IMG/VR virus record: IMGVR_UViG_2713896785_000025
Source of the DNA: a virus
Taxonomy: Duplodnaviria > Heunggongvirae > Uroviricota > Caudoviricetes
Length of the DNA: 12,187 nt
Reading direction: 5' to 3' (one strand)
The first letter of the stretch is position 1, and each line of letters begins with the position of its first letter. A program made the position numbers and the translations under genes. Under the pieces are notes generated by a model that was not told the DNA's origin, ran no database searches, and worked only from the letters and a program-made list of their open reading frames with translations. Positions 2,600 through 12,187 of the stretch are shown here, in pieces.

Positions 2600-3142
2600 T
2601 TACTCGCCTTTCTTCTGTAGCAACTTTTCCGGTACGTTTCCGGTTGTTTCTTTCAAGTAATCAGCCAGTATCTGTGGGAGGTTGTCGGCAACTCTGGCAC
2701 TGGCATTACAGGCTTTAACCACTTCCCTTTTAAGCCTGTCCAGCATGGCGGGGGGAATCTGTGGGAAGCTCCTTTGCATAGTAAGCGGGAGGATGTCCAT
2801 GATTGATGAAATCTGACTCGCCAGCTTTGAAAGCGCGTACAGGCAAAACTCAGTATCAATCACGTCACCGCGATCGCGATCGTTTTTAAGTTCCTGCGCC
2901 TCTGCCTGTGCTGTCAGTAATCTGATCCTGACTCGTAAAAGTTCATCATCGTCAATCTCGCCTTTGTCGTTTATAAGCTGGCTAATTGCATTGTTAACCC
3001 TATTTTCTATCACGCTGGCAACATCATAAAACGCCTCACGGCCTTTACGCTCAACGGGAGTTACTCCCCACTTGTCGAACGCTGTCGCACTTACACGGCA
3101 GCTTTTCGCCATGTTTTTTTTGTTCATCAGATGAGATTTCAT
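2600..3142 (-). CDS. Terminase small subunit, lambda Nu1-like (180 aa)
   Basis: Blocks shared with lambda Nu1 as recalled: NKK near N-terminus, LT(A/R)AQA(E/D)AQELKN.RD, (E/A)FC..(A/V)LS, ILPL(T/S)(M/V)QR.FP, LKR(E/D)(V/I)(V/I)KA. SD-like GGTG before ATG 3140-3142. Confidence 0.85.
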   Translation of the reverse strand: MKSHLMNKKNMAKSCRVSATAFDKWGVTPVERKGREAFYDVASVIENRVNNAISQLINDKGEIDDDELLRVRIRLLTAQAEAQELKNDRDRGDVIDTEFCLYALSKLASQISSIMDILPLTMQRSFPQIPPAMLDRLKREVVKACNASARVADNLPQILADYLKETTGNVPEKLLQKKGE

Positions 3143-3250
3143 TAATACACCAACTTAATTACTGCTTCAGGTTGGTGTATTGCTTGCATCTTTCCCTTTT
3201 CATTCATAAAGATAGATCAAACAACAAAACCACCACCACCCCCCTGAAAA

Positions 3251-3319
3251 GGCTCATAAATAGCGAAAATCCGCGAGGTCTCCGCCCCGTAACAGGTCCA
3301 TATGCCGGAAAGGACCCGC
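3251..3319 (-). other. Second lambda-type cos (cos2) in minus orientation: cosQ-like flank, cosN-like GGGCGGAGACCT (rc of 3276-3287, one mismatch), proximal cosB-like sequence, about 135 bp upstream of terS start
   Basis: Minus strand reads GCGGGTCCTTTCCGGCATATGGACCTGTTACG GGGCGGAGACCT CGCGGATTTTCGCTATTTATGA, closely matching the lambda right-end/left-end junction as recalled. Confidence 0.7.
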
Positions 3320-3341
3320 AAAAAAGCCGGATTTCTCCGGC
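3320..3341 (-). terminator. Intrinsic terminator (copy 1 of a thrice-repeated motif)
   Basis: Minus-strand RNA: hairpin GCCGGAGAAAUCCGGC followed by U6; 7 nt downstream of stop of gene 3348-3761. Confidence 0.6.
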
Positions 3342-3347
3342 CTTGTC

Positions 3348-3761
3348 TCAGATGGTTTTCAGTATGCGATCGATGTCGCCGTCATCGCCCGGGTTTCTGC
3401 CATCGTATGCCATGCCAGCTGATACGGCTTGTGGGCTGTGCATGTCCATAAAGTTTTCAAAGGCTGCGGTAAGCTCTGGTGCAACCTTCGGGCGTTCCTG
3501 CTCTATGGTCATGTTCAGGATGTTTTTAGCCGTATCAACATCAATACAAGGCACGTTTGCCATTGCACGTAACAGCGGCTGATAGTCGTCAGATTCATGA
3601 AGCGCCATAATCGCATCAGCGCGCGGCTTGTCCTTCTCTTCCAGGCTGTTAAGTTGATATACGGCCTCGTAGGTTGATAAACCTCTGTCAGCCATTGCCC
3701 GCGCTTCGGCTTTAAATTTACTCGCCAGCGGTAGCGTCATGATACTTTCATTCGTTGCCAT
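3348..3761 (-). CDS. Hypothetical protein (137 aa), between decoration gene and terS
   Basis: ORF with SD-like AGGGGGA upstream of ATG; 12-nt gap after the upstream gene stop; no recognisable motif. Confidence 0.65.
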   Translation of the reverse strand: MATNESIMTLPLASKFKAEARAMADRGLSTYEAVYQLNSLEEKDKPRADAIMALHESDDYQPLLRAMANVPCIDVDTAKNILNMTIEQERPKVAPELTAAFENFMDMHSPQAVSAGMAYDGRNPGDDGDIDRILKTI

Positions 3762-3773
3762 CGTTCCCCCTGC

Positions 3774-4109
3774 TTATCGCGCCAGCGGCTGAACGGATAC
3801 GCCAGAACCCGCAAAGGCGGCGCATTTTTTCGCGTCGGTGTCGGCGCTCTCAGGCCAGTTAACGGCGGCAATATTGAATATCCCCGTCTTGTAGCACTGT
3901 GCTGATTTCTGCGTCGACGTGTCCACGGGGTACGAGGTCAGATAAACAGCCTTGCCAGATTCCTGACCATCCCACGGCTTAAACTCGCCATTTTCCGCCA
4001 GCATCAGCGGGGTAAATTCCTGAATAACGCCAGCATCAGCAGCAAAATGTACCAGCGTCGTGGATACCTGCTGACTACCTGCAAATAACTCAATGTATGG
4101 AGTGTCCAT
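3774..4109 (-). CDS. Head decoration protein, lambda gpD-like (111 aa)
   Basis: Motifs shared with lambda D as recalled: TPLML, WDG, YK(T/S)G(I/T)F, WPE, KK..AFAG; same length class; SD GGGGGGA in 12-nt spacer after MCP stop. Confidence 0.85.
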   Translation of the reverse strand: MDTPYIELFAGSQQVSTTLVHFAADAGVIQEFTPLMLAENGEFKPWDGQESGKAVYLTSYPVDTSTQKSAQCYKTGIFNIAAVNWPESADTDAKKCAAFAGSGVSVQPLAR

Positions 4110-4121
4110 AGAATCCCCCCG

Positions 4122-5177
4122 TTAACCAATTTTGACGGTAACAAATTTGCGAATATCTGCCGGTACCGGCTGCGGTGCGCTGTGCGTCTGCACGTACTCA
4201 ATCGCCGGATCGCCGTCCTCAATCCAGTTTTTCGGGTAAAACATGTTTTGCGTTGCGCCCGTTCTGACCGCTTCCTGATCCATAATCGCACCATAGGCCA
4301 CCAGCCCTTTATTGTTGGTGTTACCCAGGACCAGCAAATCAGGCTCAAGGAAATATTTTTCGGTGCCGTCGCTGTCAGTGTATTTGCCGGAATAGACGAC
4401 AAGGGCAATATCGCCCAGATAGCCTTTAAAGCTCACCACTTCACCCAGGTTTTTACAGGCCAGTTCTGCGGCGGATTCTGAACCACGGGAAAGGTCGTAC
4501 AGTTCGCGGAATTTTTTAAAGCTGCGTAACGTGCGCCATACTTCAGCGCCCATAATCATGACGTTTGCGGGGCAATTGCCCTGATCAGCATAAAGCTCGA
4601 TGTCATAGATTGGATCGTGTGTTTCTTTATCCAGCTCAGACCATTTTTTACCGTCAGCCTGTTCTATGATATTGCTTTCCGGGATCTTCCAGTCGATTTC
4701 ATAGCGTTCTATGCCTTCGCCCTCAATGAGGTTTTTTCCGGTCGTTACCGCATTCACCGCCAGCCATTCCACGCGTGCCTTAATGGCGTTTATCTGGCGG
4801 CGCATGTTGCCAGTAATCAGGCGCATACGGCGATAGGTAGGATCGTTAAGCTGTGCCGGATCTTCTCCAGCCATGCGCATGATGGTTTTTGTTGGATCGA
4901 TTTCGTGTTTGGGTTTCATGTAGCCTGGTTTAATCGTGCTGGTTTCGTACCCTTTATCGCGCTGGACCTGACTACCCACCATAGGCGAACAGAACGCTGA
5001 CATCGTAACCTCTTCAATGTCCAGGGTGTCCAGCATGATGTTCTGGGTGTTGAAGGTCGCCACGTTCGGGAAAAACAGCGTGGTAAACAGCGGACTGAAT
5101 TTAAATTCTGCAATATCCCCGCGATTCAGGTACGCGAAAAGCTGGTTAGTGTTAAGTGCCGTTGCTTTGCCTGCCAT
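4122..5177 (-). CDS. Major capsid protein, lambda gpE-like (351 aa)
   Basis: Motifs shared with lambda E as recalled: (K/E)FKF.PLF..LFF, PGY(V/M)KPKHE, EDP..L.DP.YRR.R, YSG.Y, YPKNW...GDPA, SAP. Strong SD GGAGGTGA; start overlaps upstream stop (TAATG). Confidence 0.9.
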   Translation of the reverse strand: MAGKATALNTNQLFAYLNRGDIAEFKFSPLFTTLFFPNVATFNTQNIMLDTLDIEEVTMSAFCSPMVGSQVQRDKGYETSTIKPGYMKPKHEIDPTKTIMRMAGEDPAQLNDPTYRRMRLITGNMRRQINAIKARVEWLAVNAVTTGKNLIEGEGIERYEIDWKIPESNIIEQADGKKWSELDKETHDPIYDIELYADQGNCPANVMIMGAEVWRTLRSFKKFRELYDLSRGSESAAELACKNLGEVVSFKGYLGDIALVVYSGKYTDSDGTEKYFLEPDLLVLGNTNNKGLVAYGAIMDQEAVRTGATQNMFYPKNWIEDGDPAIEYVQTHSAPQPVPADIRKFVTVKIG

Positions 5178-5383: not shown

Positions 5384-5439
5384 AGTAAGAAATTCCTCTT
5401 CGACTTAAAAAATCATAACTGGATGTTTATCCAGTCCTG

Positions 5440-5467
5440 ATTATAATCAGAATTGCATTTTATGCAA
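5440..5467 (-). promoter_or_regulatory. Candidate sigma70 promoter for capsid operon (-10 TATAAT, -35 TTGCAT, 16-nt spacer) overlapping palindrome TTGCATTTTATGCAA
   Basis: Minus-strand hexamers read from rc of 5440-5445 and 5462-5467; inverted repeats at 5453-5467 and 5418-5435 (ACTGGAT-GTTT-ATCCAGT). Confidence 0.4.
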
Positions 5468-5548
5468 TGATATTGAGTTATGTTGCAAATTATGAAATGA
5501 TTATCCCGATCACGAACGCCAGTGCATCCAAAAACCTCATATGCAAAA

Positions 5549-5586
5549 GCCCGATAAGAACCCTCTGACCTTATCGGGCTTTTTTT
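5549..5586 (+). terminator. Hairpin plus T7 (10-bp stem GCCCGATAAG/CTTATCGGGC); strong on + strand, weaker on minus
   Basis: Perfect 10-bp inverted repeat with 11-nt loop followed by TTTTTTT on + strand; A-run on other side gives U4 on minus strand. Confidence 0.5.
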
Positions 5587-5592
5587 GGGCGC

Positions 5593-5614
5593 AAAAAAGC
5601 CGGATTGCTCCGGC
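5593..5614 (-). terminator. Intrinsic terminator (copy 2 of repeated motif)
   Basis: Minus-strand RNA: hairpin GCCGGAGCAAUCCGGC followed by U6; about 20 nt downstream of gene 5635-5859. Confidence 0.6.
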
Positions 5615-5634
5615 TATGTGTGCTGTGTGCTGGC

Positions 5635-5859
5635 TCAGTCTCTGATCTCTTTCAGAAATTCTATCAATGCATCTATCTGTTCAGGATTTACCGCCAGCAT
5701 TTCACCGGATAGAGCACATCTCACAAAACCATGCTGATCCTTTTCAATCAGTGCGCCCGTCTCCAGGAATGCGCGGTAATCATTGATGCTCATCGTCTCC
5801 ATGTTGTCAGCATGGTATTTATCACGCTGTTTTAATATCTCATCAAATTTCATCGGCAT
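5635..5859 (-). CDS. Hypothetical protein (74 aa), terminator-insulated cassette
   Basis: ORF with SD AGAGGA 9 nt upstream of ATG; no recognisable motif. Confidence 0.6.
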   Translation of the reverse strand: MPMKFDEILKQRDKYHADNMETMSINDYRAFLETGALIEKDQHGFVRCALSGEMLAVNPEQIDALIEFLKEIRD

Positions 5860-5955
5860 TGTTTTTTTCCTCTGTTGTGTCTGTTTGTTTCAGATAGTAA
5901 CTATGCCTGACCGTGACGAAAACCCGGTAATGCGCCATACCGTTTCAACTGGTGC

Positions 5956-5978
5956 AAAAAAAGCCGGATTTCTCCGGC
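5956..5978 (-). terminator. Intrinsic terminator (copy 3 of repeated motif)
   Basis: Minus-strand RNA: hairpin GCCGGAGAAAUCCGGC followed by U7; 8 nt downstream of stop of gene 5986-6258. Confidence 0.6.
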
Positions 5979-5985
5979 TGTTTGA

Positions 5986-6258
5986 TTAGCTGTCCTGGTA
6001 ATTGCGCCATATTTCATCACCAGCACCATCTATACCCATTTCGGCATAAGTGCGATCGACTGCCTTTTTCAGGTCTCCGAAATTATCCGGCGGCTCCGGT
6101 GCCCTCTGTGCCTTCCTTGAACATTCCAGCCGTCGCATCGTGATGTGATGCCGTTCCTTGTCTGTCTCCACCAGCTGCATGACTTCACCCCATCGCGCCG
6201 CCGCCCTCCGGTAAAAGCCTTTCGCCTCCAGTTCCTCCGCTATGCGGTCATGTACCAT
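5986..6258 (-). CDS. PerC-family transcriptional regulator-like protein (about 90 aa; start refined from the 130-aa track ORF)
   Basis: N-terminal motif D.IAEELEAKGFYRRAAARW typical of the PerC/Pch family as recalled; internal ATG at 6256-6258 has SD GAGGGGG 5 nt upstream, and the SSB stop codon lies within that SD. Confidence 0.6.
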   Translation of the reverse strand: MVHDRIAEELEAKGFYRRAAARWGEVMQLVETDKERHHITMRRLECSRKAQRAPEPPDNFGDLKKAVDRTYAEMGIDGAGDEIWRNYQDS

Positions 6259-6268
6259 CGTCACCCCC

Positions 6269-6679
6269 TCAGAACGAAATATCATCACCGTAAGGGTCAT
6301 CGCCTCCCGCTGGTGGCTGATTACCCTGTGTGCCTGTGGTTTTGCGTCTGTTCCCGCCTGGACGTGCCGCGCGGGCACTGATTACGCTGTCTGCGATAAC
6401 CTGCCAGCCCTGCCGCGTTTCTCCGTTCTGTCCGGTCCACTGGCTTACCTGCATCGTGCCGGATACGCTGGCAACATCGCCTTTTTGATGTTTAGCCAGG
6501 AAGTCGGCCTGTTTGCCAAATGCGATGACCGATAACCATAACGTCGCCTGTCCGTCCTGTGCCTGGCTGCATGGCAAAGATACCGCCATACGCGCCAGCG
6601 TCATCGGTGTGCCCTTGCTGGTCTGTTTTACCTGCGGGTCGTCCACCAGCCGCCCGTAAGCGGCTATCTGTGCCGTCAT
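6269..6679 (-). CDS. Single-stranded DNA-binding protein homolog (136 aa)
   Basis: OB-fold blocks align with E. coli SSB as recalled (GRL..DP, FGK.A, W..Q.G..R); Gly/Gln-rich linker; acidic C-terminal tail GDDISF (host tail is DDDIPF). SD GGAGAGGTGG; ATGA overlap with upstream gene. Confidence 0.8.
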   Translation of the reverse strand: MTAQIAAYGRLVDDPQVKQTSKGTPMTLARMAVSLPCSQAQDGQATLWLSVIAFGKQADFLAKHQKGDVASVSGTMQVSQWTGQNGETRQGWQVIADSVISARAARPGGNRRKTTGTQGNQPPAGGDDPYGDDISF

Positions 6680-6927
6680 AATTCCACCTCTCCGGTTTTA
6701 ACGTTGATGGTTGTTACCTGTTCCGCTTCGGCAATCTCCCGTTCTGTCAGCGTGGCAAAGTTTGCCGCCGCCGTGGTCATGAATGCGCTTATCAGGTCGG
6801 GATGTTCCTTCGCGTATCCTTCCCGCGTGTGGCGGTCTATCGTTCTGATTGCCACCTTTAAGGTGTGCTCAGTCATGTCTAACGCTTTATATTTTGGCTC
6901 TGTTCTGTCTCTGCGTTTTTGGGTCAT
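6676..6927 (-). CDS. Hypothetical protein (83 aa from ATG; track ORF uses GTG at 6957)
   Basis: ATG at 6925-6927 (rc) with GAGAGG 9 nt upstream; GTG start would place iterons inside the coding sequence. Confidence 0.5.
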   Translation of the reverse strand: MTQKRRDRTEPKYKALDMTEHTLKVAIRTIDRHTREGYAKEHPDLISAFMTTAAANFATLTEREIAEAEQVTTINVKTGEVEL

Positions 6928-6939
6928 TTCTCGCAACCT

Positions 6940-7130
6940 CTCACTTTTTCGCCTCACTTTTTCAAGCGTCTCACTTCGTCGCAGTTGGGATTTTCGGTTT
7001 TTCTATGTGTGTGTTTCATAAGTATTTTTTTACCCCTCACTTTTGAGGATGTATACAGGTCGAAAAGTGAGGGAGAGCGGGCTAATTTTGGCCCTCTTTC
7101 TATCCCCCTCGCTTTTGCTCCTCACTTTTA
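6940..7130. repeat. Iteron array / candidate origin of replication (CTCACTTTT repeats, one inverted) with AT-rich tract
   Basis: CTCAC(T)4 at 6940-6949, 6953-6962, 7036-7045, 7121-7130; variants at 6970-6978 and 7108-7117; inverted copy AAAAGTGAG at 7063-7071; AT-rich stretch 7001-7034; immediately downstream of replicase gene. Confidence 0.6.
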
Positions 7131-8528
7131 TAGCGGCGCTACATCATCCCCATCGATACGAATAACCCCATCTTTTTCCAGCTTGTACAGCCAGCGCCGG
7201 AAGTTTTTCATTTCATACCCCAGCTTTTTCATGTCATCACGTAACAGCGGGATCGTGCACTTGTCGCCGTTCTGTGTGCGTGAACGGATGCACCCCCATA
7301 GCGCGGTATGGTTTTCCGTCTTGTTCCCTGCCTCCTCGATGCGCTCCAGTTCAACAGGAGGGCGCGGATCATCCACCACCACCAGCGACGTGATTAATTC
7401 ACCGTCAGCGTCGGTAAAAAGCTCCACCACGCGTAAGTCATATGCGGCTTCTTTGAGTTCCTCCGCGTCCTTCATTTTGGTGCATGAGATAACCAGCGCT
7501 TCGCTTCCTGCGTCCTCCCTGCGTATCCGGTATTCAGCATCCAGCGAAGCACGAAATGCACTGGAACCGCGCGCGCCTTTCGTCTCATCCTTGCCGGAAT
7601 GGTGAACCACCAGCACCGTGGCCCCTGTGCGTCGTTTCAGTTCGTCACAACCACGGATAAACGCCCCCATATCACGGGAATCATTTTCATCATTCCCACC
7701 AAAGCAACGCGCCAGCGTATCCAGAATAATCATGCGTACAGGTTTACCCGTTTCCCGCTCCACCTGACGGGCAGCGATAACCATTTCATCAACATCAAGC
7801 GGGGCAGCCGGAAAGATGGGGCGGTTTACCAGATACAGATTTTTCACCTGCTCATCGTGCACAACCTCCCAGGCTTTTACACGACGCGGAACACCTATAC
7901 CGCCTTCACCAACCACATAGAGAACCGCACCATGTGCAACCCTGCGGCCTCCCCACTGGCGACCAGTGGCAACATGGCACGCCCACGATCCGGCAAGGAA
8001 TGATTTATAGGACCCGCTAGCCCCGTATATGCTGCATAGCGATACCGCCGGAATAATCCCCTTAACCACGTAATCCAGTTGCGTGTCGTATCCGGTAGAT
8101 CCAACGCTCATCGGTAGCGTGGTTTTTCGCTGGTGGTTTTTTTCTTCCGCCGGCTCTTTCCCGCGCACCCGTTCCAGGTATTCGCGCCAGTTCTCCCGCA
8201 TATGGCTGTGCATCCCTTCGGGGTAATAATTCGCATCAGTTACACCCGCCGCCGCCAGCTTGTGCGCAATGGCATTAATATTTGATGGCCTGATGTGGCC
8301 TGCCTTGTACAGCCGGACACAATAGCGCCCCTCGTCGATGATTCTCAGGTCTGCCAGTTCATCCAGTTGATCATCAGCCAGCACAACGGGAGGCACATTA
8401 TCGCCAGCCAGTCGCCCGTCCTGTTCCTGCCACTGTTTCGCATGTGCCCAGGCATCACTACCCGCAAAAATAATGACTTCGGTCATCTTGTCGTAAGGCT
8501 GTTTTTTTAAGTTCGGTGCGCTTTTCAT
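7128..8528 (-). CDS. Replication protein: RecA-like AAA_25 ATPase/helicase-type replicase with N-terminal possible Toprim/primase-like domain (466 aa)
   Basis: Walker A GASGSYKSFLA...HVATG, Walker B-like MIILDTLARCF, HHSGKDETKG motif; SD AGGGG; start overlaps upstream stop (ATGA). Confidence 0.85.
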   Translation of the reverse strand: MKSAPNLKKQPYDKMTEVIIFAGSDAWAHAKQWQEQDGRLAGDNVPPVVLADDQLDELADLRIIDEGRYCVRLYKAGHIRPSNINAIAHKLAAAGVTDANYYPEGMHSHMRENWREYLERVRGKEPAEEKNHQRKTTLPMSVGSTGYDTQLDYVVKGIIPAVSLCSIYGASGSYKSFLAGSWACHVATGRQWGGRRVAHGAVLYVVGEGGIGVPRRVKAWEVVHDEQVKNLYLVNRPIFPAAPLDVDEMVIAARQVERETGKPVRMIILDTLARCFGGNDENDSRDMGAFIRGCDELKRRTGATVLVVHHSGKDETKGARGSSAFRASLDAEYRIRREDAGSEALVISCTKMKDAEELKEAAYDLRVVELFTDADGELITSLVVVDDPRPPVELERIEEAGNKTENHTALWGCIRSRTQNGDKCTIPLLRDDMKKLGYEMKNFRRWLYKLEKDGVIRIDGDDVAPL

Positions 8529-8871
8529 TTCTTGCCCCTGAATCCGTTAATCATGGTTTTCAGCTTCTGGATGTTTGCCCGTGCCCTGGCGTTGCTGGTG
8601 GGCACGTTATGCGGCGCGGTCTGTACCAGAGAAAAATCACGCCGGAACTGATAAACAGGCATCACGCAATCATATTCGTAACCTTCACGNNNNNNNNNNN
8701 NNNNNNNNNNNNNNNNNNNNNNNNNNNNNNNNNNNNNNNNNNTGATTTTTGTTTGTCGCGTTCATTGTCGCCAAGTGTTTCAAGCCATATGCGCAATATT
8801 TCCAGCATGTTTTCACTGTGAGAAAGTGCAAGAAATGCGCGGTCTATTGTTTGGTGGTAAATATCACGCAT
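8525..8871 (-). CDS. Hypothetical protein interrupted by assembly gap (N-terminal 43 codons 8743-8871; C-terminal 54 codons 8528-8689 plus stop 8525-8527)
   Basis: Both fragments are open right up to the gap edges; ATG 8869-8871 with SD GAGGA; C-terminal frame ends with TGA overlapping replicase ATG. The stated gap length (53) is not a multiple of 3, so continuity is unproven. Confidence 0.45.
8690..8742. other. Assembly gap (53 N)
   Basis: Run of n characters in the sequence. Confidence 1.
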
Positions 8872-9328
8872 GGCTTACATCCTCAGGAAATTTTCTTCTA
8901 TAACGCGCCTCTGCCACATATTCCGCATAATCGGCGGCGATATTCAGTACATCAAGCCCCGTTGATTTATATTCTCTCGTGGAAAGTAAGAAAAAAGCCG
9001 CTCTAATAAGTTCTGGCATTGACGAAAGCGCATCAGCCGCATCATCAGGAACGCCGGAAAATTCCTGTTTCAGGGAATTAAAACGATCATCACGCATAAC
9101 CCCCCCATTTTCACAATCAGCAATCAGGATGGCTTTGGCCTCATTCAGCGCCATATCCGCACTAAGTTGCATAACCGCCAGCGAATGAGGAACGAAAGCC
9201 CCGGCATATTCTGTTTCACTGGTGGCGTGCTTATGCGCCATGTCTGCGATAACAGAAATATCAATCAGCGCGTGCATTAGCGTTATGATGGCTTCGGCGG
9301 CTGCGTCCGGACGGATGTTATTGCACAT
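8864..9328 (-). CDS. Hypothetical protein (154 aa), first clearly supported gene of leftward early operon
   Basis: Near-consensus SD AGGAGGTG 5-6 nt upstream of ATG 9326-9328; stop overlaps next start by 8 nt. Confidence 0.65.
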   Translation of the reverse strand: MCNNIRPDAAAEAIITLMHALIDISVIADMAHKHATSETEYAGAFVPHSLAVMQLSADMALNEAKAILIADCENGGVMRDDRFNSLKQEFSGVPDDAADALSSMPELIRAAFFLLSTREYKSTGLDVLNIAADYAEYVAEARYRRKFPEDVSHA

Positions 9329-9524
9329 GGCACACCTCCTGACGAATACGGGCAGCGAATACCATCACGCAGCCAGCCGGAGATTGCTGGCGTGCTTCCT
9401 GTTCGCTGGTGGCCTCAATGGTAATCACGCGCGGTTGTGCCGTGCTCAGGGCGATAAAACGCCAGATGTATTTATTCAGGTTGTGCGAGTCCCGCCCTTG
9501 CGGGTGTGTGGTATGATTTCTCAT
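9318..9524 (-). CDS. Possible small protein (68 aa); C-terminal part of the 342-aa track ORF
   Basis: ATG at 9522-9524 (rc) with GAGGT 4 nt upstream; otherwise unsupported, and it contains the SD of the next gene. Confidence 0.25.
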   Translation of the reverse strand: MRNHTTHPQGRDSHNLNKYIWRFIALSTAQPRVITIEATSEQEARQQSPAGCVMVFAARIRQEVCHVQ

Positions 9525-9620
9525 AGCTACCTCGATACTTTCGCTATCGTTGGTGGTTAGAAGCCCGGTTAGTGTTAGCGCACTGCCGGGTTTCGTCGTT
9601 TCTGCACCTTGCGCCAACAA

Positions 9621-9674
9621 GGTGTTGAACACCAATTTAAACCCAGGTGTTAAACACGTCAAGTGTTGAACACT
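9621..9674. promoter_or_regulatory. Three palindromic operator-like sites GTGTT-N-AACAC with candidate rightward promoter
   Basis: GGTGTTGAACACC 9621-9633, GGTGTTAAACACG 9646-9658, AGTGTTGAACACT 9662-9674 (centres 25 and 16 bp apart). -35 TTGAAC 9666-9671 inside site 3, 17-nt spacer, -10 CATACT 9689-9694, upstream of ORF 9724. Confidence 0.6.
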
Positions 9675-9723
9675 TATTTTTTTTCCTGCATACTGCATTT
9701 GTTTTTTATGAGGGGTACACCAC

Positions 9724-9903
9724 ATGGCGACAAAAGCAGTAAACGCAAAATCACAAACCGTTGCGGCAAGGGTTCCGCATGAAGTTATGAACAATGTTGA
9801 GGCGGTAAAAATGCCTGGCGAAAGTACGGGGCAATTTGTTACTGCAGCATTAAAACGAGAAGTTGAATATCGCCAGCGGCGCAAGGCCAAAGAACCAGAG
9901 TAA
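9724..9903 (+). CDS. Small DNA-binding protein, ribbon-helix-helix-like (59 aa)
   Basis: Not in ORF track (below size cut-off). ATG 9724 with SD GAGGGG 8 nt upstream; pattern beta-strand TVAARVP, helix, loop GES, helix resembles Arc/CopG-type RHH; basic C-terminus. Confidence 0.55.
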   Translation: MATKAVNAKSQTVAARVPHEVMNNVEAVKMPGESTGQFVTAALKREVEYRQRRKAKEPE

Positions 9904-9960
9904 TCACCATCAGCGCCGTGGTGTAAGGTATTACGGCGCATTGCTATGCAGGACAACACA

Positions 9961-10134
9961 ATGACCGATAAAGAATTGACCAAAACATTATCACCGGCAC
10001 GGAAAAGACGGCGCAGAAAGATAGAGCATGAATCAGAAAGATTCGCGCCATGTGCTTTTGCCCTTGAGCAATTCCTTAAAGAGTACAGGGAAAAGCGCTC
10101 ATTGCAGGTATGGCAACGAACTGAACCAGACTGA
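9961..10134 (+). CDS. Small basic hypothetical protein (57 aa; track ORF starts at 9946)
   Basis: ATG 9961 has SD AGGA with 7-nt spacer; Arg/Lys-rich segment RKRRRRK; followed by terminator. Confidence 0.45.
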   Translation: MTDKELTKTLSPARKRRRRKIEHESERFAPCAFALEQFLKEYREKRSLQVWQRTEPD

Positions 10135-10228
10135 TAGCATTGCCCACCAGCCTGATAGCGACTATCATTGCCGTTCTTATGTTTGGGATCACACACACAA
10201 ACGGCGCAGCGGGTTATCTGTTCAGAAA

Positions 10229-10257
10229 GGCGGCTCCATTTCGGGGCCGCTTTTTTT
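10229..10257 (+). terminator. Intrinsic terminator for rightward transcript
   Basis: Stem GCGGCTCC/GGGGCCGC (one G-U pair), loop ATTTC, then T7 on + strand. Confidence 0.65.
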
Positions 10258-10403
10258 ATGTCTGAAAAACCCCAATTTTGTTGTTTTTCAGTTTCACCAG
10301 GGCGAACGAATCCCCGCCCACGTTCTGGCGTATATTCAATCTTCATGGTTATAGCTCTGTGTTCAGATGATTGATGTGTGGCGGCTGCGTGCCGCCAGCG
10401 TGA

Positions 10404-10592
10404 TTAATGAACTGCCTTGCAGCTATCCTTCCAGGCCAGAACCTCGGATAAAGACCAGCCAACGGAACGACCGCCAAGTTTACGACGTGATGGGAATTGT
10501 CCGGCCTTTTCCAGGCGGTAGCGACACGTACGGCTAAGGCCGGTTAGTTTTTCGCATTCTTTTTCACGTATAAACCGATCAGTGCTTAACAC
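10404..10592 (-). CDS. AlpA-family transcriptional regulator (about 62 aa from GTG; track gives 89 aa from TTG at 10673)
   Basis: HTH block LTGLSRTCRYRLEKAGQFP..RKLGGRSVGWSLSEV.AW typical of AlpA/Phage_AlpA as recalled; GTG at 10590-10592 (rc) preceded by SD AGGGGGG with 5-nt spacer; no internal ATG. Confidence 0.8.
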   Translation of the reverse strand: MLSTDRFIREKECEKLTGLSRTCRYRLEKAGQFPSRRKLGGRSVGWSLSEVLAWKDSCKAVH

Positions 10593-10957: not shown

Positions 10958-12187
10958 TTATTTTCTTCTGGCTGCTGGTAGTGCGGTTACGTTTTCATGT
11001 GTTCCCGCCAGTATCCCTAACCGCTCCATCCACATATCCAGCGCATTGCGTTTAGCATCCAGATAACGGGAATGATTATAAACTCGCTGCATTCCTGGCA
11101 TCTGGTGGCCTGTAAGCTGCTCCACGACGTGAGGATCCACGCCTAAATCGCTCAGCATCGTTGTAAAGGTGCGCCGGATGTCATGTAGTGACCAGTGAGG
11201 GTGATTTAGCCTCCTGTGCGCTAATCTGCCGTACTGCGACACGCTTGTTTCCTGTTTCACTTCCCCCAGCAATAAGCCCGTGTGCCTGTTCTGCTCCACC
11301 AGCTGCGTGACGAACGGCAGTATTGCTTCCGGTATGGGCCGGAATATTGCCACCTTCGTTTTGCTGTGTTCTTTCGGCACGGTCCAGAGCATTTCGGTAA
11401 AATCCCACTCGCTGATCTCCGATAACCTCAGTTCTACCGTCCGGCATCCGAACACAATCAGGAGGCGGATTAACGCGATGTAGTAGGGGGAGAATATTTT
11501 TTTGTCCAGTGCCTGCAATAATTCGCCCAGTTCTTTGGTGCTTAAGACACGCTCGCTTATATCCGGTTTTTTCCCAACGTCCGCCACACTCATATCATCA
11601 AGAACGTTGCTGATTGCATAGCGCCGCCTCCGGCAGAACTTAAGCGCCTGTTTGCACGTCTGTAGCAAGAATCCGGCAGTAACAGGCGTTCGCTTTGCCA
11701 CCTGGTCAAAACAGGCCAGCCAGTGCCGTAGCTCGCATTTATCCAGCGGCATAGCACCAATGTGCTGTATTACGTGATTATTAAGGCGCTTTTTCAGGGC
11801 GGCATAATCCACGCGGTTTTCCTTTGCGTACGACTCAAGCCAGTAGGTGAGCGCATCGCCAACCGTTACCGGCTTTAACGCTTCCTGTACGGTGTAATTA
11901 AGCTCATGACGTGGATTTTTCCCCTCTGCCAGCCATGCGCGACACTGGGCGGCTTTTTCCCTGGCTGATTTCAGGCTCAGATCAGGATAATTTCCCAGCT
12001 TAATGCGTTCCGGTGGTGCCCCCCTTCCCGTTCCGGCCCTGTAAGTGAAATACCAGGTTAAAAGGCCACTGGTTGAATGCCTGACGCTCAGGTTTCCACC
12101 GTCATTAAGAAAGGCTGTTTTTTGGGCGGGTGTGCCGTTGATTTTCCTCAGCTGTGTATCGCTCAGTTTGTTAAGTGCTCTGCTCAT
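10958..12187 (-). CDS. Tyrosine recombinase / integrase, P4-like family (409 aa; start codon at the window edge, so the 5' end could be truncated)
   Basis: N-terminal arm-binding-type region; catalytic-domain motifs GCRTVELRL, HDIRRTFTT, LTGHQ...VYNHSRY (R, H-x-x-R, Y). Confidence 0.92.
   Translation of the reverse strand: MSRALNKLSDTQLRKINGTPAQKTAFLNDGGNLSVRHSTSGLLTWYFTYRAGTGRGAPPERIKLGNYPDLSLKSAREKAAQCRAWLAEGKNPRHELNYTVQEALKPVTVGDALTYWLESYAKENRVDYAALKKRLNNHVIQHIGAMPLDKCELRHWLACFDQVAKRTPVTAGFLLQTCKQALKFCRRRRYAISNVLDDMSVADVGKKPDISERVLSTKELGELLQALDKKIFSPYYIALIRLLIVFGCRTVELRLSEISEWDFTEMLWTVPKEHSKTKVAIFRPIPEAILPFVTQLVEQNRHTGLLLGEVKQETSVSQYGRLAHRRLNHPHWSLHDIRRTFTTMLSDLGVDPHVVEQLTGHQMPGMQRVYNHSRYLDAKRNALDMWMERLGILAGTHENVTALPAARRK

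Follow-up and report, generated by a model that had tools for sequence, protein, structure and literature searches.

A single-stranded DNA-binding protein with a natural Pro-to-Ser tip variant in an EcCICFT073-family island

EcCICFT073 is a characterized Gram-negative phage-inducible chromosomal island (PICI) that is induced and transferred by lambda and phi80 and carries the capsid and decoration genes c1499 and c1500; together with EcCI042, it has been equated with O-island 51 of O157 (PMC6092414). Its RppA protein redirects the TerS of the helper phage. [quoted passage not shown] (PMC10111431). In our literature search, the EcCICFT073 studies contained no mention of the SSB of this island, and we found no paper on a PICI SSB that went beyond listing it as a replication gene.

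Here, we describe the SSB gene of an island in a window of 12,187 nucleotides (the whole stretch of DNA analyzed; IMG/VR record IMGVR_UViG_2713896785_000025). Several things about this gene are already known, namely, its product (the RefSeq annotation of WP_000126687.1 is already single-stranded DNA-binding protein), the type of island and the filing of SSB under replication in the PICI literature (PMC10111431). The SSB reveals no new system or mechanism and is unusual only in that its second-to-last residue has undergone a natural change from Pro to Ser. In the literature searched, two points were apparently undiscussed, i.e., that an allele resembling the E. coli mutation ssb-113 is widespread in EHEC islands, and that the SSB clade is restricted to satellites.

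The island and its replication module

The 3' end of phoQ opens the window and is followed by an island of ~10.9 kb whose tyrosine integrase end adjoins roxA (Table 1). The island genes are on one strand, and tail and lysis genes are absent. An integrase, AlpA and a replication module, transcribed in a single direction within about 10 to 15 kb, characterize a PICI, and all of these were found. In E. coli CFT073 (locus L004), the arrangement phoQ, island, roxA and the gene order of the window were both present, with 82 to 97% nucleotide identity in blocks, and O157:H7 EC4115 carried the same island at the same site. Since the site between phoQ and roxA and the gene order are shared with EcCICFT073, we take the island, on sequence grounds, to be an EcCICFT073-family PICI, and thus of a known type. 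The gene set, the site and the shared order also bear out the earlier note, which had called the SSB satellite encoded.

Table 1. Positions in the window of the SSB gene, its parts and the surrounding island features
Feature	Position	Strand	Basis or remark
SSB CDS, 136 aa + stop	6269..6679	minus	protein = RefSeq WP_000126687.1
OB-fold ssDNA-binding domain (predicted), residues 1-101	6377..6679	minus	alignment, AlphaFold2, Foldseek
Disordered basic linker, residues 102-126	6302..6376	minus	AlphaFold2, composition
Acidic C-terminal tip DDPYGDDISF, residues 127-136	6272..6301	minus	translation, composition
Ser135 codon TCG (orthologues CCG, Pro)	6275..6277	minus	A/G difference at + strand 6277
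PerC-family regulator, 10 nt downstream of SSB stop	5986..6258	minus	Pfam E 1e-42
Small ORF, phrog_1231, coupled translationally to SSB by ATGA overlap	6676..6927	minus	
Six AAAAGTGAGG-like iterons, both orientations, directly 3' of replicase	6940..7129	.	repeat analysis
RepA-family helicase (AAA_25), island replication initiator	7128..8528	minus	
Packaging/capsid module: Nu1-like TerS, scaffold-like, lambda D-like decoration, lambda E-like capsid	2600..5177	minus	
AlpA-family regulator of island	10404..10592	minus	
Tyrosine integrase, roxA-proximal island end	10958..12187	minus	

Two of the iterons form an 11-nt perfect inverted pair (7034-7044 and 7063-7073), and the array is likely to be the replication origin of the island, as judged from its repeats and its place. 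With the iterons 3' of the helicase gene and the remaining genes downstream of them, the SSB belongs to a module of replicase, origin, small ORF and SSB. It followed the replicase in every related element examined, PICIs and capsid-forming PICIs (cf-PICIs) alike, and the replicases preceding it were of the AAA_25, D5_N/DUF5906, DUF927, primase-helicase and VapE types. Because this position is kept after five types of replicase, a generic role fits better than a partner-specific one. The suggestion that the SSB may support replication of the island is in keeping with this placement right after replicase and origin in all related elements examined, and such a role appears probable. The SSB-PerC pair was likewise kept in most of the related E. 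coli and Klebsiella islands examined; PerC homologues of PICIs have been reported to activate, to silence or to leave unaffected LEE expression (PMC6092414, among other sources).

Elsewhere in the island, an Icd-like region and a DUF4222 protein are encoded. A run of N at ~8690 to 8745 stands for ~245 real bases; matching genomes are 192 bases longer across this interval, and the genes for the DUF4222 protein and for a small hypothetical protein lie there. A 342-aa ORF (9318-10346, minus strand) had no family match, and RefSeq annotates Icd-like genes or pseudogenes there. Within ~9900 to 10350, the O157 and O26 copies differ (frameshifted or partial), which was the sole sign of decay in the island. 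In the packaging module, a 180-aa Nu1-like "small terminase" (2600-3142, minus strand) sits where EcCICFT073 has the 144-aa RppA, and related islands had either a Nu1-like TerS or RppA at that position. A 137-aa protein (3348-3761, minus strand) corresponds to phrog_1999 and shows weak similarity (E = 7e-9) to the C-terminal part of phrog_53, a head maturation protease/scaffold family. This suggests that the island carries a lambda Nu3-like scaffold, with neither portal nor protease, beside its E-like capsid and D-like decoration proteins.

Fold, linker and tip of the SSB

The SSB ORF runs on the minus strand from an ATG at 6679-6677 to a stop at 6269-6271, and the interval assigned to it beforehand, 6269 to 6679, was exact for this 136-aa frame. 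Its start codon overlaps the stop codon of the small upstream ORF (ATGA) and is preceded by the Shine-Dalgarno sequence GGAGAGGTGG. The protein matched Pfam PF00436 (SSB; 60.6 bits, cutoff 26; E = 1.7e-16), phrog_44 (E = 1e-39; annotated as single strand DNA binding protein) and NCBIfam TIGR00621 (57.3 bits, exceeding the cutoff of 53.95), and sequence matches in the PDB comprised 26 solved SSB chains (best E = 6e-11). A single-sequence structure model was mediocre (pLDDT 69). In the AlphaFold2 monomer model subsequently built from an 85-sequence alignment, residues 1 to 101 formed an OB fold of the classic beta1-3/helix/beta4-5 topology with pLDDT >94, while residues 102 to 136 were of low confidence and disordered. 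In a Foldseek comparison with the PDB, the best 50 matches were all bacterial or mitochondrial SSBs, with a target-normalized TM-score of ~0.8. The family models and the predicted fold thus agree with the earlier description of the protein as an OB-fold SSB homolog; they identify it as a bacterial-type SSB, which would be expected to bind ssDNA.

As the earlier note had proposed, the protein was aligned with the host SSB (EcSSB; P0AGE0, checked against PDB 1eqq and ending in MDFDDDIPF). Identity in the OB domain was 26%. Of the four DNA-stacking aromatic residues of EcSSB, three (W54, F60 and W88) have conserved counterparts in W48, F54 and W81, and Cys37 takes the place of the fourth, W40. 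H55 of EcSSB, the ssb-1 position, is Leu49 in the island protein. In both proteins, the OB domain is followed by a disordered linker and an acidic tip whose last residues are hydrophobic-X-Phe. The linkers differ, being 56 aa long and rich in Gly, Gln and Pro in EcSSB and 25 aa long and basic (net charge +5) in the island SSB, where the sequence is ARAARPGGNRRKTTGTQGNQPPAGG (G6, A4, R4, P3, T3, N2, Q2, K1). The linker had been described as short and Gly/Gln rich; it is indeed short, but it is rich in Gly, Ala, Arg, Pro and Thr and contains only two Gln.

The protein ends in ...GGDDPYGDDISF, confirming the GDDISF terminus read from the sequence earlier. Set against the host tip (DFDDDIPF), the island tip (PYGDDISF) has a net charge of -4, the terminal Phe and four Asp, as in the host. 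The hub motif D-D-D-I/L-P-F with its penultimate Pro is absent, and Ser135 stands in its place. The two genes also differ in status, EcSSB being essential and the island SSB accessory.

Origin, spread and likely effect of the penultimate serine

Tips ending in ISF and IPF differ by one base, a C-to-T change (CCG to TCG) at plus-strand position 6277. In the cf-PICI SSB of strain 2015C-3163, the tail 61-mer was one base off the window, at this same position, and the tip was DDIPF. The earlier note had spoken of a variant C-terminal tail. A variant residue is present, but a family-specific design is not, as the change is a single Pro135Ser and the usual tip of the family, that of EcCICFT073 included, is DDIPF.

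The same change, Pro to Ser at the penultimate residue of the tip, defines ssb-113 (P176S) of the host protein. In E. coli, ssb-113 confers temperature-sensitive replication and hypersensitivity to DNA damage; binding of chi is impaired, and the interactions with ExoI and the replication machinery are weakened (PMC3045619; PMC10287960). Since the change is the same, docking of host SSB partners is probably weaker for the ISF tip than for the DDIPF orthologues, by an analogy that extrapolates from a host protein only 26% identical, with a different OB domain, linker and preceding tip residues.

The wider clade points to modest constraint at this residue. A representative library of 1.84 billion proteins gave 6743 matches, and 76 near relatives among them combined an acidic tip with Phe as the last residue. 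In these 76, the penultimate residue was P in 40, G in 10, S in 6, A in 4 and N in 4, and in the other 12 it was spread over seven further residues. The position is thus only loosely conserved across the wider clade of SSB relatives. Other tip variants in relatives were IQF, D, G or N at position -4, and IPL in Klebsiella. ISF is probably a tolerated tip polymorphism, near-neutral or mildly weakening, with no new function.

The reading that we favor, and hold to be fairly likely, is that the SSB is a replication accessory in the replication module of an EcCICFT073-family PICI, with a slightly weakened tip that is probably near-neutral. Upon helper-phage induction, the island would excise and replicate from the iteron origin beside the RepA helicase. 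The SSB, co-transcribed just downstream, would use its OB fold to coat the island ssDNA once unwound, and its flexible acidic tip may dock replication and repair partners, of the host or possibly of the island, like other SSB tips.

The homologue search gave 559 matches, of which the best 120 were all from Escherichia or Shigella. By cluster, the tips of close homologues were PYGDDIPF in 63, PYGDNIPF in 25 and ISF in 5. The exact protein, WP_000126687.1, was found on at least 1000 contigs, and the exact 61-mer at the ISF codon in 324 of 5426 complete E. coli genomes, including O157:H7, O55:H7, O145 and O26, a count inflated by the heavy sampling of STEC clones; owing to this oversampling, the frequency of ISF says little about selection. 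We also considered whether ISF could be sporadic or a sequencing error, and rejected this given its presence in the 324 complete genomes and on the contigs carrying the protein. A single-protein scan of genome contigs returned E. albertii only, plus two weak matches.

Comparison of the O26-type and O157 islands (L001 versus L002) showed a mosaic with a conserved block at ~5400 to 8528 of the window. The RepA-origin-SSB-PerC module was 99.9% identical (3 mismatches in 3145 nt), compared to 98.5% nucleotide identity for the chromosomal flanks, 96.8% for the AlpA-integrase segment and 94.3% for the packaging module (TerS to capsid). As the module is more alike than the flanks, the ISF module was recently exchanged between lineages. 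This argues against a dead-end mutation and for an allele that is tolerated and still spreading. It could nevertheless be supposed that the EHEC island copy is a decaying, immobile remnant in which a slightly deleterious ISF hitchhiked during clonal expansion. In keeping with such a history, RefSeq marks an Icd-like gene lying between that for AlpA and the replication genes as a pseudogene, O-island 51, a related element of O157, is usually annotated as a defective prophage (PMC6092414), and STEC clones are heavily over-sampled. However, neither the SSB ORF nor any other part of the replication module is disrupted, the near identity of the module between flanks that differ by 1.5% speaks for recent horizontal exchange and not for vertical descent alone, and ISF alleles occur in different island architectures. 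We consider a remnant very unlikely.

Among the 80 IMG/VR loci closest to the query (mostly contigs of 5 to 16 kb), the tip was ISF in 17, IPF in 57 and IQF in 3. Truncated, fused or frameshifted SSB genes were seen in three of the 80 (L065, L089 and L091), whose products were 80 aa, 230 aa (read-through into PerC) and 131 aa (altered end) long, so that loss of or damage to the gene does occur occasionally. ISF was found in lambda-E-type PICIs and in one HK97-type cf-PICI, i.e., with two packaging types, and together with AAA_25, D5_N/DUF5906 and DUF927 replicases, all three of which also accompanied IPF. A cognate relationship, in which ISF is tied to one replicase, was rejected on this account.

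The association with replicases bears on a further possibility, namely, that the ISF tip is adaptive, either through less docking to the host SSB interactome or through retuning to an island-encoded partner. The island SSB would then no longer titrate host partners or draw host nucleases and helicases to island ssDNA. That the allele persists, spreads horizontally and sits on mosaic backbones is compatible with this, as is the enrichment of the AAA_25 replicase among ISF loci (13 of 15, compared to 19 of 52 IPF loci), and the SSB of HK620, whose tip NDYPPF serves a cognate partner (PMC5928155), offers a precedent from a mobile element. However, the enrichment is explained by linkage inside one near-identical module, there are ISF loci with D5_N-type and DUF927 replicases as well as IPF loci with AAA_25, most alleles have IPF, including that of the experimentally mobile EcCICFT073, and the IQF and DG/DN tip polymorphisms point to relaxed constraint. 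An adaptive ISF tip thus seems unlikely to us. A bolder form of this idea, in which ISF is a naturally selected "hub-blind" SSB that coats island and possibly helper ssDNA without recruiting ExoI, RecQ, PriA or chi, is in our judgment highly improbable. If it were true, satellite intermediates would be insulated from host processing, or a helper dependent on host SSB would be handicapped, and the allele would be a mobile natural counterpart of ssb-113 spreading among EHEC lineages.

The tips of the O157/O26 islands (ISF) and of EcCICFT073 (IPF) provide two clean natural alleles that differ at the residue defining ssb-113. A comparison of the two could show what a satellite SSB tip docks to, and their practical value is modest.

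A satellite clade and its relation to other SSBs

Among 50,697 deposited phage genomes, no relative of the SSB above ~35% identity was found; the clade is therefore satellite-specific. An identity as a phage gene was rejected on the same result. In PICIs and cf-PICIs, this short SSB is a regular constituent of the replication module. Relatives at 55 to 72% identity lay beside primase or helicase genes on small circular Klebsiella and Enterobacter "plasmids"; in the Enterobacter record, only a VapE replicase adjoined the SSB. One such record (L009; NZ_CP033626.1, K. pneumoniae "plasmid unnamed1", 22,859 bp) encoded an integrase, an Icd-like protein, DUF4222, a primase-helicase, an SSB with the tip FDDSIPL, ending in Leu, and PerC. 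A block of ~4.4 kb is repeated at both of its ends, and this duplication suggests an over-circularized assembly of an excised PICI-like satellite and not a plasmid.

A satellite-specific clade could also point to conflict, with the SSB acting mainly in interference with the helper phage, which relies on host SSB, or in triggering or masking SSB-sensing defenses. The earlier note had raised conflict of this kind, in the form of competition with host SSB for partner proteins or interference with systems that sense ssDNA-SSB complexes, and neither form found support in our analysis. Such defenses exist and respond to phage SSB and not to host SSB, and interference with helper phages is a known trait of PICIs (PMC6092414, among other sources). 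The SSB and six neighboring proteins, however, matched no PADLOC model, and the gene occupies the position of a replication accessory. The published sensors require ssDNA binding by the phage SSB (Retron-Eco8 also its oligomerization), the tip is dispensable for DARNA, and T7 SSB lacking the terminal Phe still triggers. Known interference by EcCICFT073 maps to Rpp and not to SSB. Furthermore, Ser at the penultimate position should, by the ssb-113 analogy, make partner binding weaker, and this speaks against the SSB being an effective competitor of host SSB. A role mainly in conflict is, in our view, quite improbable, and we retain the replication accessory as the preferred reading.

The closest described counterpart is the SSB of EcCICFT073 itself (WP_000126698.1, E. 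coli CFT073), which is identical to the window SSB at 133 of 136 residues. The two islands share the order replicase, small ORF, SSB and PerC, the site between phoQ and roxA and the island architecture. They differ in the tip (DDIPF in EcCICFT073, DDISF in the window), in two further substitutions (I52M and W92Y) and in gene content, the RepA (AAA_25) helicase and the Nu1-like TerS of the window island having a D5_N-type primase and RppA as their counterparts in the CFT073 island.

The SSB of HK620 is likewise encoded by a mobile element, and its acidic tip departs from the canonical form; this tip is needed to engage the protein encoded next to it in the element, the Sak4 annealase (PMC5928155). 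In the window, there is no adjacent Sak4-like annealase, and the neighbors are a replicative helicase/primase and PerC.

The SSBs sensed by Retron-Eco8, DARNA and AbpAB (T7 gp2.5, T4 gp32 and others) resemble the window SSB in being non-host proteins made during mobile-element replication. According to its published description, T7 gp2.5 combines an OB fold with an acidic tail at the C terminus and works through ssDNA binding and oligomerization. Neither DARNA nor Retron-Eco8 is triggered by host-type SSB. In structure, gp2.5 and gp32 differ from the tetrameric SSBs of the bacterial type. The window SSB, being of the bacterial type, is closer in kind to the host SSB than to T7 gp2.5 or T4 gp32.
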